A DNA stretch of 64,000 nucleotides, taken from positions 4,608,001-4,672,000 of the forward strand of contig CBDETK010000013.1 in NCBI GenBank assembly GCA_965242865.1, written 5' to 3'. A program made the translations under genes and the position numbers. Under the pieces are notes generated by a model. The model was not told the DNA's origin and made no database searches. It worked only from the letters and a program-made list of their open reading frames with translations. Of the stretch, positions 1 through 57,383 are shown in pieces. How positions within the stretch are numbered: the stretch's first letter is position 1; the number at the start of each line of letters is the position of its first letter. The DNA is from Candidatus Latescibacterota bacterium. Its GTDB lineage: Bacteria; Latescibacterota; UBA2968; UBA8231.

Positions 1-1260
1 GGTGAAGTCTATAGCGTCGATCCCGCCTACAGCACCAGTTCCTTTCTAGCCGGCACCCAAAACGACGCAGCCGATATCAACTACGACGATGACCTCCGTT
101 TTGTGTACGAATTCGTTGATGACAACGACGACCAAGACCGCAACCCCGACTGGCAGCGGGCCAATTTCTCGCAGGATAGGAAAATTTTCCCCGGGTTCGA
201 CGAAAACAACGATTTCATTAACGACTTCAATCAGAATGACTCCGAGGATCGCTGGAATACGGTGCCAGACTACGAGGAGCCTTTTCTCCGCTACGCCTCG
301 GATCGGCCCGAATTCCTCTTTGGAGTCGATATGAACAACAACGGCATCGTCGACCGCTTTGAAAACGACATTCTGCCCGACTACCTATACAAACGGGATC
401 GGCGCGGATACAACATCTACGTGGGGTCTCATTTGGGGCCAGAGGCGCGGCTGACCGTTGGGCGCCTCGACGAGCGCCAGCTAGCCGACGCCCGCGAAAA
501 CGTCACCAATTACGCCTTGCTGACCTTTGACAAGGACTACGCCAGCAAGGGGCGCGTGCAAGTGTACAACAACTATCGAAGAGTCCAAGACAATATTCGC
601 GACGACGTGATTGAATGGGTGGTGCGCGAGGGGTCGCGCGGCGACTTAGTGCCCTATACCGATCTCCTGCCCCTGCGCGATGGTTGGGCCAATACCCTGT
701 ACTTGGGCTATCAATACCAGAGCGACCGCATCCACTTCAAAAACCGCGCTAAGTGGGAGGTTTTCAAGCAATCCAATTTCGCCGACCGCCCCATTGAGGA
801 GCAGGACATCCGCGAGACCGCTTCCTTCTTTGGGATCCTCAATAAGGTTGATTACACGTTTGACCTCGGCGTCCTCAAGCTGCAGCCGCGCTGGAAGAGC
901 GAGTTCCAGCGCCAGCGGCCATCGCGCCGCGAAGATACGCAGGTGCGGTTGGCTACTACGGAATTGCGCGAGCTCTGGTCTTTGGTCGTGCGCGTACCCA
1001 TCTTGGCGCGCACCGAATTGCAGACCGGCCTAGAGTACCTGCTCGTCGAGCAGTTCCGCGAGGATCTGGAAACCCACTTGCTGCGCTCGGATCGCAACGA
1101 GATGGTCTTTGCCCTGCAGTTTACCAACAATGCCGAATACCTAGGCTATAATCTGTGGACCCAGACCGGGTTCCGCGTGTCGCGGATCGATCGCGCCTCG
1201 GCCGAAAGGACGCGCACCGAAACAGCCATGTTCGTCACCGTGTTCGCTGGCTTAGAGTAG
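1..1260 (+). CDS. 5'-truncated predicted outer-membrane protein with acidic DxNxD segment; paralog of 45599..48328 and 48331..51051
   Basis: Frame is open from base 1 (GEVYSVDPAY...). Shares VDDNDDQD..FPG[FW]DENNDFINDFNQND..PDYEEPFLRY.SDRPEFLFG.D[ML]NNNG..DRFEND and C-terminal YLGY..FAGLE with both paralogs; alternating beta-strand-like C-terminal half. Confidence 0.8.
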   Translation, partial: GEVYSVDPAYSTSSFLAGTQNDAADINYDDDLRFVYEFVDDNDDQDRNPDWQRANFSQDRKIFPGFDENNDFINDFNQNDSEDRWNTVPDYEEPFLRYASDRPEFLFGVDMNNNGIVDRFENDILPDYLYKRDRRGYNIYVGSHLGPEARLTVGRLDERQLADARENVTNYALLTFDKDYASKGRVQVYNNYRRVQDNIRDDVIEWVVREGSRGDLVPYTDLLPLRDGWANTLYLGYQYQSDRIHFKNRAKWEVFKQSNFADRPIEEQDIRETASFFGILNKVDYTFDLGVLKLQPRWKSEFQRQRPSRREDTQVRLATTELRELWSLVVRVPILARTELQTGLEYLLVEQFREDLETHLLRSDRNEMVFALQFTNNAEYLGYNLWTQTGFRVSRIDRASAERTRTETAMFVTVFAGLE

Positions 1261-1270
1261 GAGGTTTTTC

Positions 1271-2029
1271 ATGCTGAACTATTTCACGCCGCTGCTTTTG
1301 GCCGGGCTGTTTTTTTCGGGCTGCTCCTATCGCTACTACGCCGAAGACCTCACGCCGATGAGCGAGGCCGAGCAAGGAGCCAACAAGACGGTGGCCGACG
1401 ACGGTACGGTGTCTTATAGACAGGCCCGGCTCGAAATTAGCCTGCGGCCGATGACCGACGAGGAGTTGAACCGCCAGTTCAGCACCTACTCCAATGAGGG
1501 CGCTGACTCGCGCAACCCCTACACTTTTGGCAATTCGACGCACTTTCGCACGGGGGACACCCCGCAGCGATTCACCGTCTTTCGCCTGTACCTTTCTAAT
1601 TACGAATACCCCAAGGTCTATCTCGACCCCAAAGAGGTCTATATAACCACTTCTAACGGGCGCAAGTACTACGCACTGAGGCACGAGCAGCTTTCGATAT
1701 ATTATCGCCGGTATGTCGGCGGCGGCATCGGGGGCAACGACCCTGGGACGCCCGGTAACGCTCGCTACGTCTGGCAGGAACGCATCGGCGTCCTGCGGGG
1801 TACGATGTTTCCCGATGAGGAAGTGTTCAGCGCCCAAGAGAGCGAGGGGTATCTCGTCTTTAAGCCGCTGGCCCCAGATGTGGAAGAACTGACCGTGCAT
1901 ATTCCCGATGTGGTGGTGCGCTTCGACTTCAAGGGAGATCCGATTGAGGCCGTGGACGTCGAAATGCACTTTGAGCGGGAGATCGGCCGCATCTACCCCG
2001 ACGGGAGCAAGGTGGCGACCGGCCAATAG
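1271..2029 (+). CDS. Lipoprotein of unknown function; paralog of 19362..20111
   Basis: GGAGG RBS; lipobox LFFSG-C; shared blocks VADDGT, PMTDEELNRQF, NPYTFGN, QRFTVFRL, RFDF. Confidence 0.8.
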   Translation: MLNYFTPLLLAGLFFSGCSYRYYAEDLTPMSEAEQGANKTVADDGTVSYRQARLEISLRPMTDEELNRQFSTYSNEGADSRNPYTFGNSTHFRTGDTPQRFTVFRLYLSNYEYPKVYLDPKEVYITTSNGRKYYALRHEQLSIYYRRYVGGGIGGNDPGTPGNARYVWQERIGVLRGTMFPDEEVFSAQESEGYLVFKPLAPDVEELTVHIPDVVVRFDFKGDPIEAVDVEMHFEREIGRIYPDGSKVATGQ

Positions 2030-2118
2030 CGCGGCACCGGGGTAAGCCAATTTCAACTCGCTGCGCGGTGCCGCTGGGGAAGCGGTGCCGCGCAGTTTTG
2101 TACACAGGTGATGCCATT

Positions 2119-3780
2119 ATGTTGCAGGGATTTTTTGTCTGCGGCCTCCTCTTAGCGGTCGCAGGTTGCGAGCGGGAAAGTGGACCGGCCACTCCGGTCT
2201 TGGCCACGGTGGCCGGGGAGGCGATCACGGCCTTAGACCTCGACCGCTTTGAGCGGGAATTGCCCGATTATCTGCGCTCGAAGAAGGAGGGCGTAGCGGC
2301 CCATCGCGCCCATTTGCAGAGCTTGATCGACAAGAAGCTCGTGCTGCGCGAGGCTAGGAAGCGGAAACTGGAGCAGCTACCCGGCCTGAAGCGCGAGCTC
2401 GCCAAGATGGTCAACAAGCGCCTCGTGGAGGAGCTGTCGCGCGAACTGGTCGATGCCCAGCTCGCAATTACCGAAGAGGAACTGCGCGCGGATTATGAGG
2501 AGCAAGCGCTGGGTTGGGAAATCTGGCCGGCGCACATCCTCTCGGCCAGCGAAGAAGACGCCCGCGCGATCATCCGCTTACTCGATGCAGGGGCCAGCTT
2601 CTCCGAATTGGCCCGCGAGCGTTCCCTCGCCGACGACGCAGACAAAGGCGGCAACCTCGGGGCCTTCTTCGGCCAAGGGGGGGCCGTGGCCAGCTTGCGC
2701 GCTGGCACCTTCCACTTGGAGGAAGGCCAAATCAGCGAGCCGATCCGCACCATCGATGGCTATGAAGTGGTCAAGGTGCTCAAAAAGCAGCGCATTCCCT
2801 TTGAAGAATTGCGCGACGATATTGCCAAGCGGATCAGTCGGCGCAAGTGGGTGAGCCGGCGCGAAGCAGTCATTGATTCGCTCAAGCAGGCGCACGACCT
2901 GCGCTATCACCGCGATCGCGTCCACGCCGTGCTCGCTGGGCTGCATGGCCGGGGACTGGACCAAGCGCACGCGCAAGCCCCGCTCGTCGAATACACCGGC
3001 GGGGCGATCAAGGCGGGCGACTTCGTGCGAGGGCTGCTCGATTTGGAAAAAGGCGCGTTGCCGCCCGACAGCGCCGCCGTCTTTCACGTGCTTGAGGTGT
3101 GGATTCTTCCCGATTCGCTGCTGGCTCTCGAAGCTCGCACGCAGGGGCGGCATCAGCGAGCCGATATAGTGGAGTGGAAAGAAAAAAAGCTCCAGCGGCT
3201 GCTCGCGTCCCAACTGCGCCTAGACCAAGTAGCGGGCCAGGTCGAAGTGACAGACGCTGAGGTTCGGGCCTATTACGACGACCACCTCGATGCCTACAAG
3301 TCCTTGCCCGGTATCATCGAGATGACCGAGGTGCTGGTCAATACGCACGCGGAAGCCGAGGAAATTCTCGTGCGGGCGCGCAGCGGGGAGCGGCTAAGGG
3401 AGTTGGCGATTCGCCATTCGGTGCGGCCGGGCATGAAGCCGGTGGGCGGCCATGCGTTCGCCGATAGCGGTCGGGTCACCCTTGAGTCGCTGTACCAGTC
3501 GCCGTACCGCACCTTCTTTGGCGACCACAATGCCAAAGACGTCGGGGTGCTGCAAGGCCCGCTAGAGGTCCAAGAAAAGTACAGCGTCTTTCGCCTCGAC
3601 CAGCCCTTTGAAATGGTGCCGTTGCCCTTTAAGCAGGTGCAGCGGCCCATTCGCGTCAGTATCCGCAAGCGCCGCGAAGGGGTGATTTTCGCCGCGTTCC
3701 TCGACTCACTGCGCCGAGCGGAGGCCGAGCAGGTGCAAATCAGCGAAGAAGCTCTCGCCCGTTACCCGGCCGCGCGTTAA
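2119..3780 (+). CDS. PpiC/parvulin-type peptidyl-prolyl isomerase lipoprotein (PrsA/SurA-like, two rotamase-like domains)
   Basis: Lipobox LLAVAG-C after ATG 2119; LATVAGEAIT, LQSLIDKKL (SurA_N-like), AHIL..FSELARERS..KGGNLG, GQISEPIRT.DGYEVVKV. Confidence 0.85.
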   Translation: MLQGFFVCGLLLAVAGCERESGPATPVLATVAGEAITALDLDRFERELPDYLRSKKEGVAAHRAHLQSLIDKKLVLREARKRKLEQLPGLKRELAKMVNKRLVEELSRELVDAQLAITEEELRADYEEQALGWEIWPAHILSASEEDARAIIRLLDAGASFSELARERSLADDADKGGNLGAFFGQGGAVASLRAGTFHLEEGQISEPIRTIDGYEVVKVLKKQRIPFEELRDDIAKRISRRKWVSRREAVIDSLKQAHDLRYHRDRVHAVLAGLHGRGLDQAHAQAPLVEYTGGAIKAGDFVRGLLDLEKGALPPDSAAVFHVLEVWILPDSLLALEARTQGRHQRADIVEWKEKKLQRLLASQLRLDQVAGQVEVTDAEVRAYYDDHLDAYKSLPGIIEMTEVLVNTHAEAEEILVRARSGERLRELAIRHSVRPGMKPVGGHAFADSGRVTLESLYQSPYRTFFGDHNAKDVGVLQGPLEVQEKYSVFRLDQPFEMVPLPFKQVQRPIRVSIRKRREGVIFAAFLDSLRRAEAEQVQISEEALARYPAAR

Positions 3781-3792
3781 GTCCGCATTCCA

Positions 3793-5832
3793 ATGAACGC
3801 AGGGGCCATGCGCGGCCGGTTTGCGGCCCTGCTGCTCGGCGTGGTTTTGGTCGCGCTCATCGAAGGGGGGTTGCGGCTGATCCCGGCGTTGGATCCGCCG
3901 CCGTTTGCCATCGAATTGGCGCGCGTTGAAGGTCGGGCACTCCACGCGGTCAACCCAGACTATGCCCGGCGCTTTTTCGCCGGCGTGGCTGAGCCCATCC
4001 GCCGCGGCATCCGCATGACCCCGCGGCCCTATATCGAACCCGCGCCCGAAGGCGCGTTGCGCGTGCTCTTTGCCGGGGGTTCAACGGTGCAGGGCTATCC
4101 CCACCCCAAGCGGTTATCGGCCCCGTCCTATCTCCAAGCAATGCTCGGCGACCTCTTACCAGACCGCCCGATCGAGGTCTTTAACGCCGGGATCACCGCG
4201 GCTTCGAGCTTTGCCGTGGCCCGCGCCGTGGAAGATGGCGTAGCCGCGCTCGGGGCGGATTTGGTCGTAGTCTATACGGGGCACAACGAGTTGTACGGGG
4301 TGTATGGGGCGGCCTCATTGGCCCAAGGCGGGCAAGCGGTGTGGATGAAGCGGGTCCACTACGCGCTGGTGCAGTGGCGGCTAAGGCCCTTGGTTGGCAA
4401 GCTGATCGGGCCGTTGGGCCACCAACCGGCGGATGGCCCCTTAATTGAGGTGATGTCTAAGGCGGGCGCGATCGCGGCGTCTGATCCGCGGCGAGCGCGG
4501 GCCGCGGCCAACTTGGAGACCAACCTCCGCGCCGTGGCGGCTCTTTGCCGGGCGCGGCACATTCCCTTGGTGCTCTGTACGGTGACCAGCAACGAGCGCG
4601 GTTTCGCGCCGGCGCGCCTTGAGCCGCCTTTGCCGACTGGGGAGCGCACGCGCTATGGGGATTTTTTGGCGCAGGGCCAGCGGGAGCAAGCCTCGCCGGC
4701 CGCGCTGGCGGCCTTGGCGCAGGCCGAGGAGCTGTACGCGGACGATGCCTATTTGCACTTCTTGCGCGGGTATCACTTAGAGCAGTTGGGCCACGAGGCG
4801 CGGGCTCGGGCGGCATATAGGCAGGCGCGCGAGTTGGATCCTCGGCCTTGGCGGGCGACCGCCGCGTTGAACGAGGTCGTGCGCCGGGTCGCGGCCGAAG
4901 AAGGGGTGCTCCTCGCCGATGTGGAGGATCGCTTCCGCGCCCACAGCCCGGCGGCCGGCGTGGGCTGGGAGCTGATGGCCGATCACTTGCATCCGGCCGC
5001 GGCCGGCCAAGTCCTCTTGGCCCGGTCCATTGCCGTGGCCTTGGAAGAAGCACCGGCCCCTTGGCAGGTCGCGCCCGGCGCGGCGGATCGGTTGGCGTCC
5101 GCCGACGAGTACCGCCGTAGGCTCGGCGACCTGCCCGTTGAGCGGCTGGCCGTGCTGCGGGCCATGGTCGCGCTCTTGGCCGCGCCGCCTCTGGATGCGG
5201 GCAACGAGCGTCGAGTGCAGACCTTGCGCGCACAGGCCGCGGCTCGGTGGGACGAACTGAGTGCTGGAGAGCAGAGCGGAGTTGAGCGTTGGCAAACGGG
5301 CGCGGGGCCGGATCTGCTGGCCCTGAACGTGGCTGAAGCGTGTTACGAGGCGCGGGAATACGAGCGGGCGCGGGCCTATTATCGCGCGGCCCGTCTGGAG
5401 GAGCCGTACACGATCTGGGGCGATTTGTGGAGTACGCTGCGCTATGTGCGTTGCGGACAGCTCGCGGGCGATGCCATTGGGCCGACCGAGCGCGCCGCGC
5501 TCTCCGCCCTGCTAGACCGCTTGCGCTTTTTGAGCGCGGCCCCGGACTTTTCCTTGGGGTTACAGGATTTTATTCGCGGCCATGCCCATCATTTGCTCGG
5601 GCAGCATGTCAGGGCGTTAGCCGCGCTAGAACGCGCCGCGCAAGACGCGAACATCCGCAAGACATTCACAACGGACTTGCTGGAGTTGCTCGTCGCCGAG
5701 CTAATGACTGCGGGCCGCTTGGCCGACGCCGAGCGATATGCGATAGAAATCGCTGCCGAGCAGGGCCAAGAGGCGTTTGGTCGCACACTCGTTGAGCAGA
5801 TTAGGGTCGAGCAGATTAGGGCGGTCCCTTAG
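3793..5832 (+). CDS. Membrane-anchored SGNH/GDSL hydrolase with TPR repeats
   Basis: N-terminal TM; SGNH blocks GGSTVQG, FNAG, YTGHNE, DHLHP; TPR-like helices. Confidence 0.8.
   Translation: MNAGAMRGRFAALLLGVVLVALIEGGLRLIPALDPPPFAIELARVEGRALHAVNPDYARRFFAGVAEPIRRGIRMTPRPYIEPAPEGALRVLFAGGSTVQGYPHPKRLSAPSYLQAMLGDLLPDRPIEVFNAGITAASSFAVARAVEDGVAALGADLVVVYTGHNELYGVYGAASLAQGGQAVWMKRVHYALVQWRLRPLVGKLIGPLGHQPADGPLIEVMSKAGAIAASDPRRARAAANLETNLRAVAALCRARHIPLVLCTVTSNERGFAPARLEPPLPTGERTRYGDFLAQGQREQASPAALAALAQAEELYADDAYLHFLRGYHLEQLGHEARARAAYRQARELDPRPWRATAALNEVVRRVAAEEGVLLADVEDRFRAHSPAAGVGWELMADHLHPAAAGQVLLARSIAVALEEAPAPWQVAPGAADRLASADEYRRRLGDLPVERLAVLRAMVALLAAPPLDAGNERRVQTLRAQAAARWDELSAGEQSGVERWQTGAGPDLLALNVAEACYEAREYERARAYYRAARLEEPYTIWGDLWSTLRYVRCGQLAGDAIGPTERAALSALLDRLRFLSAAPDFSLGLQDFIRGHAHHLLGQHVRALAALERAAQDANIRKTFTTDLLELLVAELMTAGRLADAERYAIEIAAEQGQEAFGRTLVEQIRVEQIRAVP
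5791..5820 (+). repeat. 15-bp tandem duplication (GTYGAGCAGATTAGG x2)
   Basis: gttgagcagattagg gtcgagcagattagg; encodes VEQIR VEQIR at the C-terminus of the SGNH gene. Confidence 0.8.
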
Positions 5833-11549: not shown

Positions 11550-11553
11550 GGTT

Positions 11554-13185: not shown

Positions 13186-13189
13186 GGTG

Positions 13190-20111: not shown

Positions 20112-20115
20112 CCTT

Positions 20116-24416: not shown

Positions 24417-24454
24417 CGTTGATTTCTTTGCGTCCTAACTTAAGGAGGAAAAAA

Positions 24455-25141: not shown

Positions 25142-25549
25142 ATGGCTCAGAGAGTAGATAAAAAAGAACTGACCATGCCCGACCTGACGCCGATGATCGA
25201 CGTGGTCTTTCAGCTACTCATCTTCTTCATGGTGACTGCTGTGTTCGCCATTACTCCAGGTTTGGACATCAAACTGCCCGAGGCCGAAGAAGCGCAGGCT
25301 CCGGAGAAGGAGAACCTTTTTATCGTCGTGGATCAGGACGGGAACATGAAGCTGAACCACAAATCGGTGACCTTTGCGACCCTCAAAGAGGAACTGCAGG
25401 CCAAGAGGCAGCTACTAGACAACACCACGATGATTATCATCCAAGGCGACGAGCGTTCCACGCACGGACAGATCGTCCAGATCATGGATATTGCTCGCCA
25501 AGTGGGCGTTGTTGATCAGGTCATCGCCACGGAACCGCAGCGCAACTAG
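25142..25549 (+). CDS. exbD: ExbD/TolR biopolymer transport protein
   Basis: DLTPMIDVVFQLLIFFMVT (catalytic Asp), IKLPEA, IIQGD..HGQIVQIMD. Confidence 0.95.
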   Translation: MAQRVDKKELTMPDLTPMIDVVFQLLIFFMVTAVFAITPGLDIKLPEAEEAQAPEKENLFIVVDQDGNMKLNHKSVTFATLKEELQAKRQLLDNTTMIIIQGDERSTHGQIVQIMDIARQVGVVDQVIATEPQRN

Positions 25550-32943: not shown

Positions 32944-33003
32944 AGTCGCCGTAGCTGCGAATTTGTGCCGCCGGTAGAACCCCAGAAGGCGGGGTGGGAG
33001 CGA

Positions 33004-36043: not shown

Positions 36044-36057
36044 GTCGGTGCTTGCTG

Positions 36058-42543: not shown

Positions 42544-42566
42544 GCGGCAGCTCAAAGGAGAAAGCA

Positions 42567-43436: not shown

Positions 43437-43450
43437 GCGCGCCCCTTGGG

Positions 43451-48330: not shown

Positions 48331-51051
48331 GTGGCCCGGGTGGTTATGGCCATACTCGCCCTGTTGTCGCTCGGCGGCGAGCTCGGCGGCGAGGAATACG
48401 GCAATCGCTTGGGGCGGGGGCACGGCGGCGGGCTGCAATACGTCACGCGCAGCCGCAGCACGCTCATCAACGCCATTGATCCGCGGATCCAGAAGTGGTA
48501 CATGCCCCAAGAACTGTACCGCGAATACCGCCTCAAGCAGTGGGAATACACCAATTATGCGCGGAATTTCTATCGCAGCTATTTATCGGCCACGCTCGAA
48601 GGAGATTACTTCTACGACTTGTTTGGCCGCCGCGTGATGCACGGGTGGTTGGTGTACGAGGCGAGAAAGGAGCAGCCTAGAGCGTCGGAGGGCAACAGCC
48701 TGCTCAAGGGCCTGCCCTACGGCGGCAATTTCCAGAACCTGATCATCGCCTCGGACTCCAAGGGGCAGCACCACTTCTCCCTGACCATAGGCGATGCGAT
48801 CGCCACGACCCTCACGCCGATGACGTTCCGCAAGGCCGCCTTCAACGGCGTCCAGTTTCACTATCTGCAAAACCGCTACGCGGGCACGGTGCTGTTGTCG
48901 CGCATCAGTGCGCCGCTGGTCACCACCTCGTCGTTCGACGTGGGGCTGACCAATGCCACGGAATTGACCGCCGGGCGGCTCACCGCCCAGTTGGGCGATC
49001 ACCTCACGGTCGGCGGTACGTACGTCAACAGCCACAACAGCCGCGCCACCTTGGAGCGCTTTGCCGGCAACATGTTCAAGGGGTTTCTCACCACCGACCA
49101 AGCCAGCAACGCCGTCACATTTGTCGAGGTGCGCCTCAGCGACGATTCGCCCGAAGACGGCGAGAATGGGGCCGTTCTCTTTGCCGAGAACATCATCTTA
49201 AAGGACGTGCGCGGTCATCAGTGGAACGGGGCGCAGGTCGGGTACGTGCCGGCGCGCACGGGCGGCGAATTGCGCGACGGTTTTGCGGTGGCCGACGGCG
49301 GCGACCGCATGGTGCTGCGCTACAATCTCGAAGCCTTGGCCGCGGCGCGGGTCGTGGAAGTGGATGGCGAGCGTACATGGCAGCCGACTGCGGTCGATTC
49401 CCTCGCCGAGGTGCGCTTTGAATTGGCCTTAGCCAATGATTATCGGGTCGAGGTCGCTTCAAATCGCCAGACCAATATCGAGGCGCAGCCGGTCTTCCTC
49501 TTGGTCGAGCGCGCCCCGGGCAATGTCGGCGATACCTCCAATCGGCGCACCGTGCGGTTTGACTACGGCTTACCCACGGCCAATCAGCTCGCGGGCCTCA
49601 CCTTGGAGGTGCGCCAACTGTGGGGTTTTGACCTGTACGCCGAATTAAACGTCAACCACCGCTTTGCCCAGTACCCCAGCCCCCTGCTGGCGACCCACCG
49701 CACCTCCTCTCGCCGGGCCGCGGCGTGGATGGTTGAGCTCGCGCATAGACGAGCGCCCTATTTTTTGCACGGCGAAGTCTTCAGCATGGACCCAGAGTAC
49801 ACCACCAGCGTCTTTATGACCGAGACCAACGGGCGCGTCGATTACGTCGATCCAGAGTCCTTTTTGTACGACTATGTCGATGACAACGACGATTTGGACC
49901 GCTTCCCGGATCAAAAGCGCCGGTGGCAATCCTCGAGATTGGGGCAAACCCTTTCCACGGGCGAGGGCGCGGCCGACCCGGCCGTGTTCCCCGGTTGGGA
50001 CGAGAACGGCGATTTCATCTCCGATTTCAATCAGAACGACACGCCGACGCGCCGCAATGCACTGGCCGATTACGAGGAGCCCTTTTTGCGCTTTAGCGTC
50101 GATCGCCCCGAGTTCCTTTTTGGCCTGGACATGAACAACAACGGCTGGATCGACCGCTTTGAAGACGACGCAGAGCCGGACTATCCCTACGACCGGGATC
50201 TGCGGGGATACAACGTGTACGGCGGCGTTGACATCGCGCCCCAGGTGCGCTTGATCGCGGGCCAGACGCAGCAGTGGCAGTTGTCGAGCAAGCGGCGCAG
50301 CGAGGCCGCCTACGGCCTTTTGGTCCTAGAGCAAGACTGGCCCGGCCTAGGGCGTCTGCGAGTCTTTGAGCAGCTAAAAAAGGTGCGCGACAATATCGCG
50401 GACGACCGCTTGGCCCCGCCGCAGGCACTGGGCGAGCAGCAGGCCGTGGTCGAGGACCCGCTCGCGGCCCAGAACACTTGGATCCACACCGCGTGGCTGG
50501 GGTTTGATTACACGGGCCTAAAATCGCTGCAGGTGATCAACAAGTTCAAGTACCAGGGCTTTCACCAACGCGCCGCCCAGCCGGTGCTCGCCGCGCGCGG
50601 GGCGCGGCCCTTGGGGTACTTTTTGGGCGTGGTCAACAAGGTCGATTACGGCCGCGATCTGGGCCGAGTACACCTCCGCCCGCGCCTTAAAAACGAGTTG
50701 TTCTGGGAGGTCCCCTATCTAGCGCGAGCCAGCGCGCGTCAGTGGTGGAAACAGTTGCTGTCGTTCAGCGTGCGGTTCCCCATTTTTAAGGAGTCGTGGA
50801 TTGAGACGGGCGTTGAGCAGGTTTTTACCACCGACCTCGCCACGGCCCCCCAAGCAGGTGACCGCACGGGCGATGGCCAGCAGACGATTCTGGCGATTGA
50901 GCTGACCAATTACGGCACGTACTTGGGCTACCGCTCGGTCATGCAGTGCGGCCTGCGCTTCGATCGGGACCAGTTTGAGCGCGTTGGCCGCCGGGCCGCA
51001 ACCCAGACCGGCAGCCTCGTCTTTGTCTCGTTCTACGCCGGGCTGGAGTAG
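48331..51051 (+). CDS. Large predicted outer-membrane protein, tandem paralog of 45599..48328
   Basis: Collinear motifs WYMPQELY, IASDSKGQ, LLSRISAP, DDSPEDG, RFDYGLPTANQ, DYEEPFLR; terminal FYAGLE. Confidence 0.8.
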   Translation: MARVVMAILALLSLGGELGGEEYGNRLGRGHGGGLQYVTRSRSTLINAIDPRIQKWYMPQELYREYRLKQWEYTNYARNFYRSYLSATLEGDYFYDLFGRRVMHGWLVYEARKEQPRASEGNSLLKGLPYGGNFQNLIIASDSKGQHHFSLTIGDAIATTLTPMTFRKAAFNGVQFHYLQNRYAGTVLLSRISAPLVTTSSFDVGLTNATELTAGRLTAQLGDHLTVGGTYVNSHNSRATLERFAGNMFKGFLTTDQASNAVTFVEVRLSDDSPEDGENGAVLFAENIILKDVRGHQWNGAQVGYVPARTGGELRDGFAVADGGDRMVLRYNLEALAAARVVEVDGERTWQPTAVDSLAEVRFELALANDYRVEVASNRQTNIEAQPVFLLVERAPGNVGDTSNRRTVRFDYGLPTANQLAGLTLEVRQLWGFDLYAELNVNHRFAQYPSPLLATHRTSSRRAAAWMVELAHRRAPYFLHGEVFSMDPEYTTSVFMTETNGRVDYVDPESFLYDYVDDNDDLDRFPDQKRRWQSSRLGQTLSTGEGAADPAVFPGWDENGDFISDFNQNDTPTRRNALADYEEPFLRFSVDRPEFLFGLDMNNNGWIDRFEDDAEPDYPYDRDLRGYNVYGGVDIAPQVRLIAGQTQQWQLSSKRRSEAAYGLLVLEQDWPGLGRLRVFEQLKKVRDNIADDRLAPPQALGEQQAVVEDPLAAQNTWIHTAWLGFDYTGLKSLQVINKFKYQGFHQRAAQPVLAARGARPLGYFLGVVNKVDYGRDLGRVHLRPRLKNELFWEVPYLARASARQWWKQLLSFSVRFPIFKESWIETGVEQVFTTDLATAPQAGDRTGDGQQTILAIELTNYGTYLGYRSVMQCGLRFDRDQFERVGRRAATQTGSLVFVSFYAGLE

Positions 51052-51055
51052 CAAG

Positions 51056-53572
51056 ATGCGAAAGGGGATTTCTATGGCGATCTGGATTTTGGTCGTCGCG
51101 CTCGGTTGCCGGGCCGCGGCGGCCGAGGAGGGGTACGCGATCCAAGGCGACCGCATTGTCGTGCGCGGCGCGGATCAGTGGCGGCAATGGCTCTTTCCCT
51201 TTGGCACGGTCGACATCGACTCCGCAGGCGCTCGGCCGCACTTTGTGGCGTCGGAACTCAACGCCAGCCTCAATGCCCACCGCTTTCCCTTGGGGGCGGA
51301 CGAGGACGAAAAGGAAGGGGGAATTTTGGCCGCTGGCTCGGGCTTGGCCGGGGCCGCGCACCTCCTCGACGGCCAAGTAGATACCTATTGGGCACCCGAC
51401 CTAGACGATCCCCCGGAGCTGTGGTGGGTGGCGATTGACTTGGGGCGGATCGTTTCGGCCCAGCGCATTGTCTTGCGCTTTGCCGGCGAGGGCGAGGGCG
51501 ATCCCTTTTACCAATTTCGCCTGATGGTGGCCGACGGCGAGGGCAAAGTAGGCGACAATCTCGATTATCACTTGGTCGGCAAGACCGAGCGGCCCAATGG
51601 GACCCAACGCGAATTTTCTTTTGACCTCCAGCCCTTCCAACAGGCCGATCCCCATTTTATCGGCGATGCCTTTCGCTTTGTGCAGGTGGTGATGACGGAC
51701 AGCCGCTTGGGCAAGGCCGAGGAAGTGGACCGCTCGGCCTACCAGAATTTGCCTGCGGAGCTGCAGGGCGCTGTGGAGCACTTTGGCCGCAGCCGCACCG
51801 GGAACGAGTGGCTGCTCGACGAAGAGGCGTACGCGCTGCTCGACCCGGCTGAGCGGGGTTCAATCCGCTATTATCGCCGCGAACAACCGCGCCTCGCCGA
51901 GGTCGAGGTCTGGACCTTGGGCGAGAACATAGCGCTGGGGGCGATCCAGCGGGGCGGCACGGTGGAAGGGCACGGCTTTAACCCCACCCGCAGCCTCGAT
52001 GGGGACTACACCACTTGGTACGGTCTGCAACAGAGTTACACCCGCGAGGCGGCCGAGCCCGAACGGCAAGTCCTCTTTGACCTAGGGGCTTTGTACTGGC
52101 TGGACCTATTCCACTTTCTACCGCCCGCCGCCCGCAGCGCCGGCGGTACGCTGGGCAACTATCGGATGAAGCTGTCGGACGGTTCGCTCGCGCCGGACGG
52201 GAGCTTGCAGTGGGTGCCCGTTGAAGAGCGGCGGGCCTTTCGCCAGCCCCGGTTCCAAGAAGTGCGCTTTGCGCTGCAAAAGGTCCGCTACATCGCCTTC
52301 GATTATCTGGTGGGCAGGGGGGGAAGCAGAGCCGGTTGGTCCGAACTGCAGGCCTACGGCGAAGGCTATCAGCCGGAGGTGGTGTTGGAATCGCCGTTGA
52401 TCGACTTGAGCAGTAGCCGGAATTTGACCGCGCTCCACTGGGACGCCGACATCCCGCCCGGGACGCGCCTGGAGGTGGCCACCCGCACCGGCGACCAGAC
52501 CAAAGTCAACACCACGTATTACCGGAGCGACGGCGCCGAAGTAGATAAAAAAGCGTACCACAAGTTGATTGCCGCGCTCCGGGGGGATTCGCTCAATGTG
52601 TTGGTCGTTGATGAGGAGACTTGGAGCCCTTGGAGCAAACCGCACCTGCGGTCGGGCCAAGTGGTCACGTCGCCATCGCCGCGCCGCTTCCTCAAGGCCC
52701 AAGTGCGGTTGAGCAGCGACGACCCGCAAAACGCCGTGCTCTTGCGCCGCTTGGAGGTGTGGTTTTCCCAACCCTGGGTGGGCCGAGCCTTGGGCGAGGT
52801 GTTTCCGGTGCAGGTGGAACGCCCGGGCGAGAACATGCCGCTGACCTTTTTCGTGCGGCCGGTGCGGCGGGTGGGCGATCCGGGGATCGACGAGGTGTTG
52901 TTGGTCAGCTCCGGGGGGACGCCGCTGTCGCTGCGGGAGGTTCGCCTCGGCGCGGCCGCAGCTGTAGCGGCTGGTGGTGGCCAAGCGCTGGGCCTAGCCG
53001 GGGTGGAGGTGCTCAAGACAGGGGCCGACTCGTTGTGGGTGCGGCTGCCGGCCGCCGTGGGCCGCGCCGAGATAGTCGCCGTTGACGTCTGGACCTCGCT
53101 GTTTGGCCACGGCGTTTCCTTTGCGGGGCGGGTGGGCAACCGCGCCGATTCGGGAACTTGGCAATTGGTCGAAGCCGACCAAGAGGCCGTGGCCGAAGTG
53201 GAAAGCGGCGTCCTGCGGGTGCTGGTGCCCTCGGGCCCGGTGGGGTTGTCGAACCTGACGCTCGCCGCCAAGGTCGTGACGCCCAACGGCGACGGGATCA
53301 ACGACGCCGTGCGGATTGGCTTTGAAGTGCTGCGCTTGGACGGAACCGAGGCCGTGCGCGTGTCGGTGCACGATCTGGCCGGTCGGCGCGTTTGGACGCT
53401 GGAGCAGGTGCGGGCCCGGGCGAGCGGCCAATACTCAGTAGCTTGGGAGGGGGTCAATGACGAGGGCGAGCGGGTGCGGCCGGGGACTTACCTCTTGCGG
53501 GTGGAGGTCCATGCGGATGCGCGCCGCAACGTGCGCACCCAGATCACGCGCCTCGTTCACGTGGTGTATTGA
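51056..53572 (+). CDS. Exported FlgD-Ig-tail protein with two discoidin-like domains
   Basis: Signal peptide; LLDG..DTYW..IDLG and SLDGDYTTWY..FDLG; ELQAYGEGY, WSPWSKP, SPSPRRF, TPNGDGIND, terminal VHVVY. Confidence 0.85.
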   Translation: MRKGISMAIWILVVALGCRAAAAEEGYAIQGDRIVVRGADQWRQWLFPFGTVDIDSAGARPHFVASELNASLNAHRFPLGADEDEKEGGILAAGSGLAGAAHLLDGQVDTYWAPDLDDPPELWWVAIDLGRIVSAQRIVLRFAGEGEGDPFYQFRLMVADGEGKVGDNLDYHLVGKTERPNGTQREFSFDLQPFQQADPHFIGDAFRFVQVVMTDSRLGKAEEVDRSAYQNLPAELQGAVEHFGRSRTGNEWLLDEEAYALLDPAERGSIRYYRREQPRLAEVEVWTLGENIALGAIQRGGTVEGHGFNPTRSLDGDYTTWYGLQQSYTREAAEPERQVLFDLGALYWLDLFHFLPPAARSAGGTLGNYRMKLSDGSLAPDGSLQWVPVEERRAFRQPRFQEVRFALQKVRYIAFDYLVGRGGSRAGWSELQAYGEGYQPEVVLESPLIDLSSSRNLTALHWDADIPPGTRLEVATRTGDQTKVNTTYYRSDGAEVDKKAYHKLIAALRGDSLNVLVVDEETWSPWSKPHLRSGQVVTSPSPRRFLKAQVRLSSDDPQNAVLLRRLEVWFSQPWVGRALGEVFPVQVERPGENMPLTFFVRPVRRVGDPGIDEVLLVSSGGTPLSLREVRLGAAAAVAAGGGQALGLAGVEVLKTGADSLWVRLPAAVGRAEIVAVDVWTSLFGHGVSFAGRVGNRADSGTWQLVEADQEAVAEVESGVLRVLVPSGPVGLSNLTLAAKVVTPNGDGINDAVRIGFEVLRLDGTEAVRVSVHDLAGRRVWTLEQVRARASGQYSVAWEGVNDEGERVRPGTYLLRVEVHADARRNVRTQITRLVHVVY

Positions 53573-53581: not shown

Positions 53582-55396
53582 GTGGGCCGCCCAGTCCAAC
53601 GGTGGATGGCTGTTTGGGTGCTTGGCTGGGCCGTGGGCTGCCAAAGCGAGCGGCCGGCCGTGTACTTCACCGATGCCACCGACCAAGCCGGCCTTTCTTT
53701 TATCCACGAAAACGGCGCGGCCGGGCAGTACTGGCTCATCGAGACCATGGGGGCCGGCGGGGCCCTTGCCGACTTGGACGAGGACAGCGACTTGGACGTC
53801 TATCTGGTCAACGGCTTCGATCTAAGGGGCTTGAACGCCCGGCCGATCAACTTGGTGCGCCGCGAAAACGGCCTCTATTGGGTGGCTCCGTCGGCCCCCA
53901 GCCCCGAGCCACGCTCGGCGGACCCGGCCGATTATGCGGTTGAGCTGACGCCCGCGGCCGGGGTGGTGCCAAGGGGCAACGCGCTCTACCGCAACGAAGG
54001 GACTGGTACTTTTGTCGAAGTGCCCAATGCCGGTGGGGCCGCGGATGTAAGCTATGGCATGGGCGTAGCCGTGGCCGATGCCGACAACGACGGCGACCAA
54101 GACCTGTACGCGACCAACTACGGACCCAACGCCTTCTATCGCAACCGCGGGGACGCTACCTTCGTCCGCGCCCGGGGCGTTAAGGCTCCCCAATGGAGCA
54201 CCAGCGCCGCCTTTTTCGACCGCGACAACGATGGCTCGCTCGACCTGTACGTGGTCAACTATCTCGATTTTACCCCAGCTACCAACAAAATCTGCGGCGG
54301 CTTCATCCACACGGACGACGCGGGCTTGCGCGCCATTGGCGAAGATTCGCGCTCGTACTGTGCGCCCAGCGAGTACGGGGGCGTGCCCGATGTGCTCTAC
54401 CACAACGCGGAGGACGGAACCTTTGTCGATGTATCCCTGGCTGCCGGCGTGGCCAATCCCGAGGGCAAGGGGCTGGGCGTGGTGGCTTGGGACTGGAACG
54501 AGGACGGGTACCAAGACCTGTACGTAGCCAACGACGGGGTGGCCAACTTCCTCTACCAAAACGCCGGCGATGGCACGTTCCGCGATGTAGCCCTGCAAGC
54601 TGGGGTGGCCTACAATGTGCGCGGCCAAGCCGAGGCCGGCATGGGAGTCGATATCGGCGATTGCGACCGCGATGGCGACTGGGACCTGTTCGTCACCAAT
54701 TTCTCCCGCGAAACCAATACGCTCTATCGCAATGAGGGAACCTACTTCAAGGATGTGACCGCGGCGGCGGGCTTGGGCCGGCCGAGCTGGCTCTATTTGG
54801 GCTTTGGCACCGCGTTTTTCGATTACGACCACGACGGCGACCCGGATCTGTACGTGGCCAACGGCCACGTCTTGGACCGCGTCGAGGTACTGCAACCCGG
54901 GGTGCGCTACGCCCAAGAGCATCAGTTGTTTCGCAACGATGGCTCCTGTCGCTTTGCCGAGGTGGGGGACCGCGCGGGGAGTTGGTTCGCGCAAGCGCAA
55001 ATAAGTCGGGGGCTGGCCCGGGGCGACTGGGATGGCGATGGCGATTTAGACCTGCTGGTGACCAATTGCGGCGGCCCGGCCAAGCTGGCCCGCAACCACC
55101 ACGGCAACGGGCGTCACTGGGCCTCGATCAAGCTGGTGGCTACAGCGGCCAACCGCGACGCAGTGGGAGCCGAGGTGCGCGTGGTGACCGATTCGTTGGA
55201 CCAGCGCCGTCTCGTGAGCAGCGGGAGCAGCTATTTATCGGCCGGCGATCGGCGGCTCCACTTTGGCTTGGGTGACCGCCAGCGCATTGATCGGCTCGAA
55301 GTCCAATGGCCCCATGGCGTCAGGCAGGTATTTCGGGAGCTACCCGCCAACCGGAATTTGCTCGTTGAGCAAGGACGGGGCGTGCAGTATGAATGA
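53582..55396 (+). CDS. CRTAC1-family lipoprotein (FG-GAP plus ASPIC/UnbV)
   Basis: Lipobox WAVG-C; DxDxDG repeats; NRDAVGAEV..GSSYLSA.DRRLHFGLG..QWPHG. Confidence 0.9.
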   Translation: MGRPVQRWMAVWVLGWAVGCQSERPAVYFTDATDQAGLSFIHENGAAGQYWLIETMGAGGALADLDEDSDLDVYLVNGFDLRGLNARPINLVRRENGLYWVAPSAPSPEPRSADPADYAVELTPAAGVVPRGNALYRNEGTGTFVEVPNAGGAADVSYGMGVAVADADNDGDQDLYATNYGPNAFYRNRGDATFVRARGVKAPQWSTSAAFFDRDNDGSLDLYVVNYLDFTPATNKICGGFIHTDDAGLRAIGEDSRSYCAPSEYGGVPDVLYHNAEDGTFVDVSLAAGVANPEGKGLGVVAWDWNEDGYQDLYVANDGVANFLYQNAGDGTFRDVALQAGVAYNVRGQAEAGMGVDIGDCDRDGDWDLFVTNFSRETNTLYRNEGTYFKDVTAAAGLGRPSWLYLGFGTAFFDYDHDGDPDLYVANGHVLDRVEVLQPGVRYAQEHQLFRNDGSCRFAEVGDRAGSWFAQAQISRGLARGDWDGDGDLDLLVTNCGGPAKLARNHHGNGRHWASIKLVATAANRDAVGAEVRVVTDSLDQRRLVSSGSSYLSAGDRRLHFGLGDRQRIDRLEVQWPHGVRQVFRELPANRNLLVEQGRGVQYE

Positions 55397-57383
55397 ACCG
55401 CCAGCCCCGCGGCGAGACTTGGGGCTGGCCGGCGGTGTCTTGCTCCTAGCTTTGGCCGTGCGTCTGGTCTATCTGGCGCACAGCGCGGCCAATCCCTTCT
55501 TCGCGGCCCCGGTTGTGGACGCCCACTCATACATGGCGCAGGCGCGGCAGCTCGCCGAGGGGTCTTGGGTGGGCGACAAGCCCTTTTGGCAGCCGCCTCT
55601 ATACCCTTATTTCCTCGCCTCGATTTACGCGGTTTCCGGCGACTTGTTGTGGACGCCCCGGTGTATCCAGCTTCTCTTGGGAGCGGCCTCAGCTGCCTTG
55701 GTCTTTGCCCTCGGTCGGCAGGTTTTTGGCACCCGAGTCGGTCTCTTGGCTGGGGGCATGGCCTGTCTATACGGCCCCTCCATCTATTTTGAAGGCGAGC
55801 TGCTGCCCACCGCGCTGGCCGTTTTCCTCAATCTCCTGTTGCTCTTTATCCTGCTCCAGCCCGGCCGGGGCTGGGGACAGGCCCTAGCCGCGGGCCTGGT
55901 CCAAGGCTTGGCCATAATCGCCGTGCCCAATGCGGCTGGGTTGGCTTTTTGCGCCGGCCTGTGGTACTGGAAGAGCGCCGAGCGAGCCGTGCGGGGCAAG
56001 CTGGCTTGGTGCCTGCTTTTTGCGGCGGCCGCCAGCGCCGTGGTCGGAGCGGTGACGGCGAGGAATTGGGTGGTCAGCGGCGAGTTCATCCCCTTGTCTT
56101 GGAACGGCGGCGTGAATTTCTACTTGGGCAACCATCCCGAGTACGACCGCTTGGTGGCAATTCGCCCCGGGCCGGCCTGGGAGGCCCTGATGGAGCAGCC
56201 GGTGGCCGCGGGCCATGTGGGGTACGCGGACCGCTCGGCGTACTTCTACCGGCAAGCTGGCGACTGGATCGCCCGTGCGCCGGGGGATTTTGTGCGGTTG
56301 TTGGGATACAAGGCGTTCTTGCTGGTGCGCGGCGAGGAGATCAAACGCAACCAAGACGTGTACTTTGCCCGCACCTATTCTTGGCTGCTCGGCGTCTTGC
56401 TGTGGAAAATCCACCACTTCGCCGTTCCGTTTGGGCTACTGGGGCCTTTGGCCGCTGTGGGCATGGTGCTCGCTTGGCGTCGTCGGCCCCAAGCGGGTTT
56501 GCTGCTGCTTTGCACTGGCGCGTACAGCGCCTCGCTGCTGCTCTTTTTTGTGACTAGCCGCTATCGCTTGCCCTTGGTGCCGCTGCTGTTGCCGTTTGCC
56601 GGGTACGCGCTGGTCTGGCTGGTGCAACAGGGGCGGGCCAGCCAGTGGCGTCTCTTGGGGAGCGGGGTGGTGGTCGTCGTCTTGCTGGCGATGGTATCCA
56701 ACGCTGGCCTGCGGCCGGCCGACCCCTTGGCCGACGCGGAAATACACTTTGAGCTGGGGCGCGTCCAAGCCCAACAAGGGCAGTACGCGGCCGCGGTGCG
56801 CTCCTTTGGAACCGCCGTGCAGCTCGATCCCAATTACCTGCGGGCGCGCCACAATCTAGGCGCGGCGCTGGCCGCGATGCGGCGCTACCGCGAAGCCGAA
56901 GCGGTTTATCAGCGGGCCTTGGCGCAAGCTCCCGACGATCAGGGACTGCATCTCAACTTGGCGGCTCTGTACCGGGCTACGGGACGATACGAGCAAGCGG
57001 TGGAGCACTACCGCCGAGTGCTGGCCACCAAGGCCGACGCCGCGGTTTTTCTCTCGCTGGGACGGGTCTATGAGAGCATGGGGGCAACCGAGCAGGCTCG
57101 GCACGCCTTTGCCGCAGCACTAAGCGACGACGAGGTGCGGGCGCAGGCGGCCAATGCGCTGGGATTGATCGCGGTCCGGCAAGGGTCGTTGGAGCGGGCG
57201 GTTGATTACTTTGCCATGGCGCTAAAGGCCGCGCCCGGCAATCACTTGATCGCCTTCAATTTAGGAGCGGCCTACCGCGACTTGGGCCAATTCGACGAGG
57301 CGGCAACGTTCTACCGCCTGACGCTGCGCTTGGCCCCCGAGTACGCCAAAGCCGAGCGTGCGTTGGCGCGATTGGAGCGGTGA
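55389..57383 (+). CDS. GT-C (ArnT/PMT_2-like) glycosyltransferase with C-terminal TPRs
   Basis: 8-bp overlap with upstream gene; PFFAAPVVDA, WQPPLY, YFEGELL, GVNFYLGN, KRNQDVY, RYRLP; TPR tail. Confidence 0.85.
   Translation: MNEPPAPRRDLGLAGGVLLLALAVRLVYLAHSAANPFFAAPVVDAHSYMAQARQLAEGSWVGDKPFWQPPLYPYFLASIYAVSGDLLWTPRCIQLLLGAASAALVFALGRQVFGTRVGLLAGGMACLYGPSIYFEGELLPTALAVFLNLLLLFILLQPGRGWGQALAAGLVQGLAIIAVPNAAGLAFCAGLWYWKSAERAVRGKLAWCLLFAAAASAVVGAVTARNWVVSGEFIPLSWNGGVNFYLGNHPEYDRLVAIRPGPAWEALMEQPVAAGHVGYADRSAYFYRQAGDWIARAPGDFVRLLGYKAFLLVRGEEIKRNQDVYFARTYSWLLGVLLWKIHHFAVPFGLLGPLAAVGMVLAWRRRPQAGLLLLCTGAYSASLLLFFVTSRYRLPLVPLLLPFAGYALVWLVQQGRASQWRLLGSGVVVVVLLAMVSNAGLRPADPLADAEIHFELGRVQAQQGQYAAAVRSFGTAVQLDPNYLRARHNLGAALAAMRRYREAEAVYQRALAQAPDDQGLHLNLAALYRATGRYEQAVEHYRRVLATKADAAVFLSLGRVYESMGATEQARHAFAAALSDDEVRAQAANALGLIAVRQGSLERAVDYFAMALKAAPGNHLIAFNLGAAYRDLGQFDEAATFYRLTLRLAPEYAKAERALARLER

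Follow-up and report, generated by a model that had tools for sequence, protein, structure and literature searches.

Paired lectin-like tail proteins and giant outer-membrane barrels recur with a TonB-less ExbB/ExbD operon in Candidatus Latescibacterota: a candidate PUL-like system

Work on Fibrobacter succinogenes has described cellulose-induced tetratricopeptide-repeat (TPR) proteins (FSU_2397 and FSU_2398) and a TonB/ExbB/ExbD set (FSU_2400-2403), together with carbohydrate-binding module (CBM) enzymes attached by a type 9 secretion system (T9SS); its authors proposed surface capture and uptake and left the barrel unassigned (PMC6851124). According to two further papers, T9SS proteins whose C-terminal domain (CTD) is of type B associate with PorP-like proteins (PMC9143113), and GldL and GldM form stator units in a 5:2 ratio, which exploit the proton-motive force (PMC11205867). 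For Latescibacterota, the accessible text on the envelope mentions only porins and the TonB import of B12 and iron (PMC4454575; Youssef 2015), and no treatment of type 9 secretion in the phylum was found in the literature searched. Here we analyse a stretch of 64,000 nucleotides (nt), the window, from a Candidatus Latescibacterota bacterium (source genome G000; GenBank assembly GCA_965242865.1, 6.0 Mb), which corresponds to C13:4608001-4672000, C13 being contig CBDETK010000013.1; positions without a prefix are those of the window. It holds three copies of an outer-membrane module in which the gene for a T9SS-tailed, lectin-like protein is followed by the gene for a barrel of about 900 amino acids (aa), and an ExbB/ExbD operon linked to that module. 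The module is undescribed in the literature searched and, as a multi-copy outer-membrane module, it is specific to Latescibacterota.

The core of the module, a tail gene and then a barrel gene of about 900 aa, was shown by the order of genes in related loci. In 61 of 62 loci (the exception is L099) the first barrel is preceded, on its own strand and at a distance of less than 400 nt, by a tail gene; the 62 are the loci with at least 2.2 kb of upstream DNA, and they include orthologues from close genomes, span several paralogue groups and are not independent of one another. In the source genome the gene upstream of a barrel is a tail in 23 of 37 cases, another barrel in five, a PorV-like gene in one and nothing that could be assigned in eight. 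Window annotation by open reading frame (ORF) listing, Pfam and NCBIfam scans and all-vs-all BLASTP of 41 ORFs returned recurring envelope gene families, and each family and count that a first, sequence-only reading of this DNA had listed was confirmed at the positions given there.

The window encodes four tail proteins of 615-884 aa, 25-29% identical over most of their length, with FlgD_ig/CHU_C at the C-terminus. They lie at 15341..17995 (minus strand; 884 aa; CHU_C 34.1 and FlgD_ig 33.2 bits at residues 787-880, with homology to the other tails extending beyond the CTD), 40696..42543 (plus; 615 aa; CHU_C 41.8, FlgD_ig 34.8 bits), 43382..45586 (plus; directly upstream of a barrel) and 50975..53572 (plus; 865 aa; FlgD_ig 34.7, CHU_C 30.4 bits). 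FlgD_ig is over its cut-off in all four and CHU_C (cut-off 27) in three, the fourth scoring 16.8 bits, and an F5/8-type-C (discoidin) domain passes the Pfam cut-off in one, that at 50975-53572 (F5_F8_type_C, 30.6 bits). The NCBIfam tail models stay under their cut-offs, with 26.1 and 18.0 bits against 35 for TIGR04131 (type B) and 19.1 and 19.5 against 23 for TIGR04183 (type A). The AlphaFold2 (AF2) model of the protein at 43382-45586 (pLDDT 85.5) comprises a CBM32/discoidin-like jelly roll, Ig-like domains, a disordered linker (residues 567-597) and a C-terminal beta-sandwich (601-704), an architecture that therefore suggests a non-catalytic, lectin-like protein, predicted to be at the surface, with a T9SS-type tail. 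Foldseek aligned the jelly roll with CBM32 modules 4a41, 4a44 and 4zz5 at a target-normalised TM of 0.71-0.77 and rmsd of 3.5-4.9 over about 160 columns, with 17-19% identity, and a search of the ESM Atlas with the tail returned only its own hypothetical clusters, labelled Latescibacterota or Gemmatimonadota.

Three giant barrels, 39-46% identical to one another, are encoded in the window, all on the plus strand. The first (1..1260) is the C-terminal 419 aa of a 916-aa gene starting at C13:4606510, with 44% and 39% identity to the two full copies, the first cassette thus beginning upstream of the window; the second (45599..48328, 909 aa) and its tandem paralogue (48331..51051, 906 aa) are 46% identical over 894 aa. 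None of them matches a Pfam or NCBIfam family. At least 1099 homologues were found at E<=0.001, none of which has a functional name or a Pfam domain; the few that are named are called 'hypothetical protein' and come mostly from metagenome-assembled genomes of Latescibacterota. The AF2 model of 45599-48328, built from a 36-sequence alignment, has a mean pLDDT of 69 and shows a large beta-barrel at residues 138-906, interrupted by a beta-rich insertion at about 269-395, and roughly 24-26 long strands, as read from the DSSP string and not from a geometric count. The N-terminal 120 residues are strongly conserved, with many invariant columns, and are modelled at a pLDDT below 50, as is an acidic segment at 517-600. 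The latter holds two loops, WDENNDFINDFNQ and DLNNNGWIDRFE, the second with the spacing D-x-N-x-N-G-x-I-D-x-x-E, which we take to be that of an EF-hand or dockerin-type calcium loop; Pfam found no dockerin or EF-hand in the segment. The acidic segment is kept even in a divergent subfamily of barrels embedded in motor operons (see below), the consensus of which ends in ...VAGF, presumably the usual terminal aromatic of outer-membrane barrels.

Fold searches with this model (Foldseek, VIA-align) returned SlpA, MtrB, LptD, FhaC, BamA/TamA, TonB-dependent receptors, ushers and SprA, all at a TM of about 0.2 and a Z of at most 13.6; thus, as modelled, the barrels are large beta-barrels of no specific family. 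The top Foldseek match was the SlpA complex of Deinococcus (7zgx_A, E 4.4e-7; also 8ae1_A). SlpA_C (PF21620) has no match in the window barrels and scores 19.0-25.1 bits, under its cut-off of 35, in three of the five barrels of the divergent subfamily that were scanned. Profiles of both subfamilies gave no match among PDB sequences. An identity as TonB-dependent receptors or SusC was rejected, since neither Plug nor TonB_dep_Rec domains were found by Pfam or NCBIfam; the same Pfam model that misses the barrels has 21 matches to ordinary TonB-dependent receptors elsewhere in the source genome. No kinship with PorV/PorP was detected: hhalign against the PorV-like family gave a probability of 0.6%, the sole aligned stretch being a non-significant pairing of N-terminal motifs. 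The remark of the sequence-only reading that no SusC homologue is recognisable thus holds, and the barrels are not TonB-dependent receptors either, with no receptor domain in Pfam or NCBIfam and a generic large barrel in the models.

The module is far larger than the window. When the window proteins were searched against all ORFs of the source genome, the giant barrel was present in 37 copies at 24 loci and the tail proteins in 125 copies, alongside 47 FG-GAP/UnbV propellers, 29 PpiC proteins, 24 CBM9-like proteins, 12 lipoproteins and 12 PMT_2-TPR proteins; ExbB has three copies by phmmer with the window protein, and MotA/ExbB genes number five in total by Pfam. The usual order is a CBM9-like gene, one to four tail genes, one or two barrels, a PMT_2-TPR gene or a lipoprotein and PpiC pair, and then TPR and propeller genes. 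The regions within 15 kb on either side of a barrel gene make up 14.9% of the genome and contain 82 of the 125 tails, 23 of 29 PpiC, 18 of 24 CBM9-like, 11 of 12 PMT_2-TPR and 10 of 12 lipoprotein genes, so that these families recur around the barrels far beyond chance. Propellers (20/47) and TPR genes (18/38) are looser companions, given how few of them are near barrels. Where three cassettes around one core had been proposed from the window, there are instead 24 loci with 37 barrels genome-wide, among which at most two or three motor operons are shared.

Other families show a partial association with the cassettes. The DUF6785/DUF6784 multi-pass membrane protein at 32965..34998 (plus; 413 bits; about nine hydrophobic segments), which could be an inner-membrane partner of the cassettes, belongs to a family with 30 genome copies, 10 of them near barrels, and DUF6785 genes adjoin barrels in other genomes (e.g. 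in the order barrel, barrel, DUF6785, DUF6785). The 692-aa membrane protein at 29362-31440 (minus; about seven N-terminal hydrophobic segments; no Pfam or NCBIfam match) has 39 genome copies, several of which form tandem arrays with as many as six members (e.g. C13:49677-62019), and only nine of the 39 are near barrels; PDB sequence searches gave no useful match for it or for the DUF4159 protein of the motor operon. The two CBM9-like secreted proteins of the window, at 18394..19365 (plus; CBM9_1 24.8 bits) and 39723..40613 (plus; 30% identical to the former), end in SWGRLK and TWGRLK, respectively. This tag, (T)SVE-x2-(S/T)WG-x-(I/L/V)K (19300-19365 and 40560-40613), ends 22 of the 24 CBM9-like proteins and a further 45 small ORFs (84-515 aa, most of them 180-350 aa), many of which stand in tandem arrays, only seven being near a barrel; among the short ORFs a few are possibly spurious. 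All ORFs together contain the motif 91 times, and an even spread would place about 12 of these in the last 30 residues; the tag is a candidate sorting or docking signal.

The motor genes lie in a plus-strand operon (18394-26935) that is divergent from the minus-strand cassette at 17995-6848. After the CBM9-like gene come a small lipoprotein (19362..20111, plus, assigned by BLASTP), a PorV/PorQ/PorP-superfamily small outer-membrane barrel (20155..21117, plus), a 1081-aa periplasmic TPR protein with YbgF/BamD-type repeats, here TPRbig (21171..24416, plus), an ExbB/TolQ-type proton channel (24419..25108, plus; MotA_ExbB 81.7 bits), ExbD/TolR (25142..25549, plus; ExbD 98.4 bits) and, at the position expected for TonB, a membrane-anchored DUF4159 protein with N-terminal hydrophobic segments (25574..26935, plus; DUF4159 89.5 bits). 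The PorV-like protein exceeds the cut-off of PorP_SprF (36.2 against 22.3 bits) and stays under those of NF033709 (76.8 against 90) and TIGR03519 (45 against 90.55); a profile of 17 orthologues matches Flavobacterium johnsoniae PorV (6h3i_F) at E 1.1e-8. A second copy of this gene, 96% identical and followed by a 52%-identical paralogue, is found at C13:889329-891242, far from any TPRbig/ExbBD operon. No TonB C-terminal domain was found by Pfam in the window operon, in which the third gene of the motor set carries DUF4159 only. While the divergent operon had been described accurately from the letters, its 'TonB-like' label does not stand, the protein in question being a multi-transmembrane DUF4159 protein. 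A canonical TPR/ExbB/ExbD/ExbD/TonB cluster is present at C13:4979842-4983140 (TonB, TIGR01352, 32.3 bits against 27.1). The window motor is therefore an additional one, lacking TonB, and its identity as the housekeeping TonB motor was rejected on the strength of that separate cluster and the five MotA/ExbB genes in total.

The operon is conserved beyond the source genome, and elsewhere it contains the core pair itself. The window proteins served to annotate 14 regions surrounding PorV-like homologues of other genomes and three regions of the source genome. In what follows f1-f14 are families of the phylum, G### genomes and L### loci. The order PorV-like/TPRbig/ExbB/ExbD/DUF4159 was found in five genomes of four families (G155 in f1, G010 in f9, G003 in f5, G006 and G005 in f6), and TPRbig orthologues in the same operon in other families are 43-68% identical. 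A tail, the PorV-like gene, one to three barrels and TPRbig stand in this order in G007 (f7) and, within f10, in G012, G022 and G016, the last of which adds ExbB/ExbD/ExbD. The source genome has a comparable locus at C13:4723526-4740743, with tail, PorV-like, barrel, TPRbig, ExbB, ExbD, ExbD, lipoprotein and PpiC genes (ExbB and both ExbD confirmed by Pfam), and a third one at C13:497843-506001, with tail, barrel, TPRbig and lipoprotein. The operon-embedded barrels, compared by profile with the barrel family, gave an hhalign probability of 100% (E 1e-105) over 841 aligned columns, including the acidic segment, and by this comparison are true members of the family. The link between the ExbBD/TPR/PorV-like operon and the barrels, which the sequence-only reading had drawn from adjacency in the window, is thereby strengthened, as barrel and tail genes lie inside the operon in other families and at the second source-genome locus.

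Type 9 secretion genes were found elsewhere in the source genome. SprA/Sov is a 2122-aa ORF at C13:2954269-2960637 (TIGR04189, 606 bits); PorU, with 624 bits, exceeds its cut-off of 420 (NF033707) and is followed by a gene of the PorV/PorQ family (NF033709, 230 against 90 bits), which is under the cut-off of the PorV equivalog (155 against 250), and then by an M6-like protein. A PorU-like CTD occurs in more than 50 ORFs. Judging from their sequences, these SprA, PorU and PorV-family genes would account for the export of the tails. GldM (TIGR03517, PF12081) and GldN (PF19841) had no match in the source genome, GldL (TIGR03513) only one at E 0.006, and GldK (TIGR03525) only partial matches to FGE-sulfatase domains, at most 69 bits against 350; with a T9SS absent from every control genome, a positive control was lacking here, and all four are reported as not detected. 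The search for sprA and gldKLMN that the sequence-only reading had called for thus returned SprA, and the outcome that it had named as counting against its proposal, a complete canonical T9SS elsewhere that explains the tails, holds in part, for SprA, PorU and the PorV family; with GldK/L/M/N undetected, a complete canonical system was not found. The FGE-sulfatase-domain proteins, which are the sole, partial matches to the GldK model and by score are not GldK, adjoin FG-GAP/UnbV genes and the second motor operon (e.g. L146:2705-3370, that is C13:4720705-4721370). TPRbig was rejected as a PorW/SprE, since it scores 43.6 bits and the best match in the genome 72.7 against a cut-off of 250. Long arrays of CTD proteins of about 720-950 aa, interspersed with membrane-anchored DUF4159 proteins of about 445 aa, were seen at C13:3157996-3205137, 367171-406357 and 490800-497537, and DUF4159 proteins therefore accompany T9SS-tailed proteins beyond the motor operon too.

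The barrel and SprA differ in their distribution. A scan of species representatives confirmed at least 535 of 573 matched stretches, and the 73 loci kept were mostly from Candidatus Latescibacterota, with some labelled Gemmatimonadota, one Handelsmanbacteria and one Planctomycetota. The barrel profile was found in 105 of 168 genomes of the phylum: in f1 (75/75), f5 (3/3), f6 (3/3), f9 (2/2), f11 (1/1) and f12 (5/6), and more weakly in f7, f8, f10 (12/13) and f13; it was not found in f2 (0/3), f3 (0/22), f4 (0/31) or f14 (0/5). A first-pass search gave more than 100 candidate copies in some genomes. SprA is present in 163 of the 168 genomes, 162 of them over the cut-off, including f3 (22/22), f4 (31/31), f14 (5/5) and nearly all other families. 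In a sample of 51 genomes, TPRbig orthologues were found in f1, f5, f6, f11, f12 and half of f9, and in none of f4 (0/12) and f14 (0/5); the tail body without its CTD in f1, f5 (2/3), f6, f9, f11 and f12 (5/6), and not in f4 (0/12), f14 (0/5) or f10 (0/13); and the PorV-like protein strongly in the same families, weakly in one of 12 genomes of f4, with weak PorV-family matches in four of five of f14. GldM (PF12081, GldM_1st) was not detected in any of the 51, again without a positive control. Barrel, tail body, TPRbig and PorV-like protein share one phyletic pattern, which differs from that of SprA; the motor-operon proteins follow the barrel and tail, not SprA, which argues against their being the general T9SS motor of the phylum. 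That the system is lineage-specific and recurring, as had been proposed, agrees with the co-occurrence and synteny of its families in other Latescibacterota genomes.

Two functions had been suggested for this DNA, a machine for export, folding and glycosylation or a PUL-like uptake locus with novel barrels (PUL, polysaccharide-utilisation locus). We favour the latter, with somewhat less than even confidence: the cassettes may be PUL-like units of capture and transport served by a dedicated TonB-less motor, a function inferred from the genes and models above. According to this proposal, the T9SS would export the tail proteins, which would then be presented at the cell surface, and each tail with its cognate barrel would form a unit of ligand capture and translocation, probably for glycans. 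Many barrels would be energised in trans by the ExbB/ExbD motor, acting through the TPR and DUF4159 proteins, much as a single TonB system serves many TonB-dependent transporters. Assembly and modification of the capture unit may be the task of PpiC, the lipoprotein and the GT-C/TPR glycosyltransferase, which faces the periplasm, and in function the module would correspond to the SusC/SusD loci while being made of unrelated parts. We consider unlikely, though worth stating, the bolder claim of a new class of energised outer-membrane transport, in which giant barrels of a new family with tens of paralogues per genome, each capped or fed by a lectin-like partner delivered by a GldKLMN-less T9SS, are coupled to a dedicated TonB-less ExbB/ExbD motor through TPRbig and DUF4159, the PUL principle having been invented independently outside Bacteroidota.

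For nutrient acquisition we count the PUL-like paralogy of the cassettes, the DUF6785 multi-pass membrane proteins that adjoin them, and the flanks in other genomes, which hold sugar and peptide ABC importers, GH127, sugar-acid dehydratases and amidohydrolases. A scan of 54 flanking proteins gave one GH127, one sub-threshold GH130 and one DUF4185 match. We also count in its favour that SusD (PF07980) had no match in the source genome, its positive control being matched in Bacteroides thetaiotaomicron. Several points weigh against an uptake function. Carbohydrate-active enzymes are few in the cassettes, unlike in classical PULs; neither a plug nor a TonB box is recognisable in the barrel, and part of its conserved N-terminal motif is missing in the operon-embedded subfamily. 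Binding of tails to barrels and action of the motor on barrels are only inferred, and coupling in trans is an assumption because most cassettes are far from any motor operon. The adjacency of tail and PorV-like genes in the embedded operons would fit an anchoring role equally well, few independent gains or losses, among related genomes, underlie the shared phyletic pattern, and the source genome is 93.6% complete with 6.8% contamination.

That anchoring role is the chief alternative, which we hold to be unlikely, to about the same degree as the bolder claim above. The giant barrel would be a platform that holds its cognate T9SS cargo, as an enlarged counterpart of the PorP/SprF-like anchors of type-B CTD proteins in Bacteroidota, and the cassettes would provide a variable coat of lectin-like adhesins, e.g. 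for attachment to host or particle glycans, without transport; the ExbBD/TPR operon would move or remodel the adhesins or be unrelated. A tail gene followed by a PorV/PorP-like gene is the sprB-sprF type of arrangement, which the embedded operons reproduce, and cargo and barrel genes are adjacent almost throughout; the type-B model CHU_C is over its cut-off in three of four tails, whereas the NCBIfam type-B model is under its own (26.1 and 18.0 bits), and the scarcity of degradative enzymes would be expected of adhesins. However, the barrel is unrelated to PorV/PorP by profile comparison and about three times their size, and an anchor has no need of an ExbB/ExbD motor in its operon. In addition, the disordered linker before the CTD suggests that the CTD is removed by PorU, which is present in the genome, and this would fit a covalent attachment to the surface rather than anchoring by a barrel.

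The alternative of an export or assembly machine, in which each barrel is the dedicated translocon or pore for the neighbouring tail, CBM9-like or propeller proteins, ExbBD replaces the undetected GldLM, and PpiC and GT-C/TPR act as foldase and glycosylase, appears improbable. Its support is that SprA, PorU and the PorV family are present while GldK/L/M/N went undetected in the source genome and GldM in the 51 genomes, and that the 5:2 stator architecture of GldL/GldM is common to ExbBD; foldase and glycosyltransferase genes recur in the cassettes, and ushers, LptD and SprA are among the generic fold matches. Those matches are non-specific at a TM of about 0.2, though, and the Gld searches lacked a positive control; SprA is the known route for T9SS CTDs, which the tails carry, and the motor operon does not follow SprA, with f4 having SprA in 31 of 31 genomes, TPRbig in none of 12 and the PorV-like protein, weakly, in one of 12. 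Still less probable, and in our opinion very much so, is that the barrels are passive giant porins or structural elements of the envelope, distantly like SlpA/OmpM, with ordinary secreted proteins co-duplicated next to them and no specific machine. The leading Foldseek match to Deinococcus SlpA and the sub-threshold SlpA_C scores in the divergent subfamily argue for such a role, but every large barrel class matches equally well, the profiles of both subfamilies find no PDB sequence, and Pfam found no SLH or other peptidoglycan-binding domain. A strict order of tail and barrel across paralogues and families, and the embedding of barrels in ExbBD operons, would be unexpected for generic porins.

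The remaining window genes mostly belong to the companion families. Downstream of the truncated first barrel are a small lipoprotein (1271..2029, plus; lipobox LFFSGC, 46% identical to 19362-20111), a SurA-like PpiC (parvulin) lipoprotein (2068..3780, plus; Rotamase_2, Rotamase and Rotamase_3 over cut-off) and a GDSL-type esterase with TPR (3793..5832, plus; Lipase_GDSL_2 50.8 bits), whose three genome copies are all near barrels. The minus-strand cassette comprises a CRTAC1-like propeller with FG-GAP and UnbV_ASPIC (6848..8725; Pfam; 41-45% identity to its paralogues), two TPR proteins (8743-10233 and 10230-11687; Pfam), a second such propeller (11554..13281; Pfam) and, next to the 884-aa tail, a GT-C (PMT_2) membrane glycosyltransferase with a C-terminal TPR (13190..15286; PMT_2 54.7 bits, eight hydrophobic segments, 38% identical to 55263-57383). 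Further along are a propeller at 35893..37728 (plus; Pfam) and a SurA-like PpiC lipoprotein at 37738..39450 (minus; Pfam; 27% identical to 2068-3780), and then, among the tail and barrel genes of the third cassette, a metallo-beta-lactamase-fold protein (42258..43436, plus; Lactamase_B_3), the true start of which is probably later than that of the listed ORF; its orthologue lies between two tail genes in L043. This cassette continues with a propeller (53582..55396, plus; Pfam) and a GT-C (PMT_2) and TPR glycosyltransferase (55263..57383, plus; Pfam). Beyond the range of the sequence-only reading, a fifth CTD protein with He_PIG and a type-A Por_Secre_tail (34.9 bits, over cut-off) is encoded at 62730-63998 (minus), and an ORF without a match at 61801-63249 (minus), which may be spurious, shares about 500 nt of that strand with it. 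The window also has genes of eukaryote-like or host-interaction type, namely a Kelch-repeat protein (35045-36043), a PhyH dioxygenase (32128-32943) and a short ORF with a fragment of a dynamin-N GTPase and ankyrin repeats (59082-59633); LRR proteins are present within barrel cassettes of related genomes.

Taken together, these results point to a large unannotated part of the cell surface in a widespread uncultured phylum, given the at least 1099 barrel homologues without a functional name, the lack of a Pfam or NCBIfam model and the candidate copies exceeding 100 in some genomes. Should the cassettes be uptake units, they would show an independent origin of the PUL strategy from other components, and they would offer a handle for predicting the substrates of Latescibacterota, sponge-associated ones included. 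The TonB-less ExbBD/TPR/DUF4159 operon, if it is indeed a motor for the barrels, would be a new coupling of the proton-motive force to the outer membrane. A nearly universal SprA without detectable GldKLMN also raises the question how type 9 secretion is driven beyond the Bacteroidota.

Compared with the described systems, the module resembles each in part. Like the SusC/SusD PULs of Bacteroidota, it has many paralogous cassettes per genome (24 loci here), a large barrel paired with an adjacent predicted surface binding protein and CBM-like accessories, and an ExbB/ExbD-type motor that is genetically linked to the barrel family. It differs from them in that the barrels have no Plug or TonB_dep_Rec, the source genome no SusD and the cassettes few glycoside hydrolases; the partner is a T9SS-tailed lectin-like protein, whereas SusD is a TPR-like lipoprotein, and a DUF4159 membrane protein and a 1081-aa TPR protein stand in the place of TonB. 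As in TonB-ExbB-ExbD transport, ExbB and ExbD over their Pfam cut-offs share an operon with outer-membrane barrels, and one or a few motors would serve many of them, but the operon here is devoid of a TonB C-terminal domain, canonical TonB being elsewhere, and the barrels are not TonB-dependent receptors. With Deinococcus SlpA (SlpA_C, PDB 7zgx/8ae1) the family shares the very large outer-membrane barrel, the best-ranked Foldseek match and sub-threshold Pfam scores in the divergent subfamily, and it departs from SlpA in scoring under the cut-off, at a TM of about 0.2, with neither an SLH domain nor a PDB sequence match. Type-B CTD proteins and PorP-like proteins are associated with each other (PMC9143113). 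Pairs of the SprB-SprF type have CTD cargo encoded directly upstream of an outer-membrane barrel, as here, where three of four tails exceed the CHU_C cut-off, the embedded operons have a PorV/PorP-like gene after the tail, and SprA, PorU and the PorV family are present; unlike in those pairs, the adjacent barrel is of about 900 aa and unrelated to PorV/PorP, GldK/L/M/N are undetected, and the NCBIfam type-A and type-B tail models remain under their cut-offs. The F. succinogenes cluster, likewise from the FCB group, offers TPR and TonB/ExbB/ExbD proteins co-regulated with T9SS-displayed carbohydrate-binding proteins; it has TonB, no giant-barrel family is reported in the accessible portion of that paper, and the parallel is one of description (PMC6851124).

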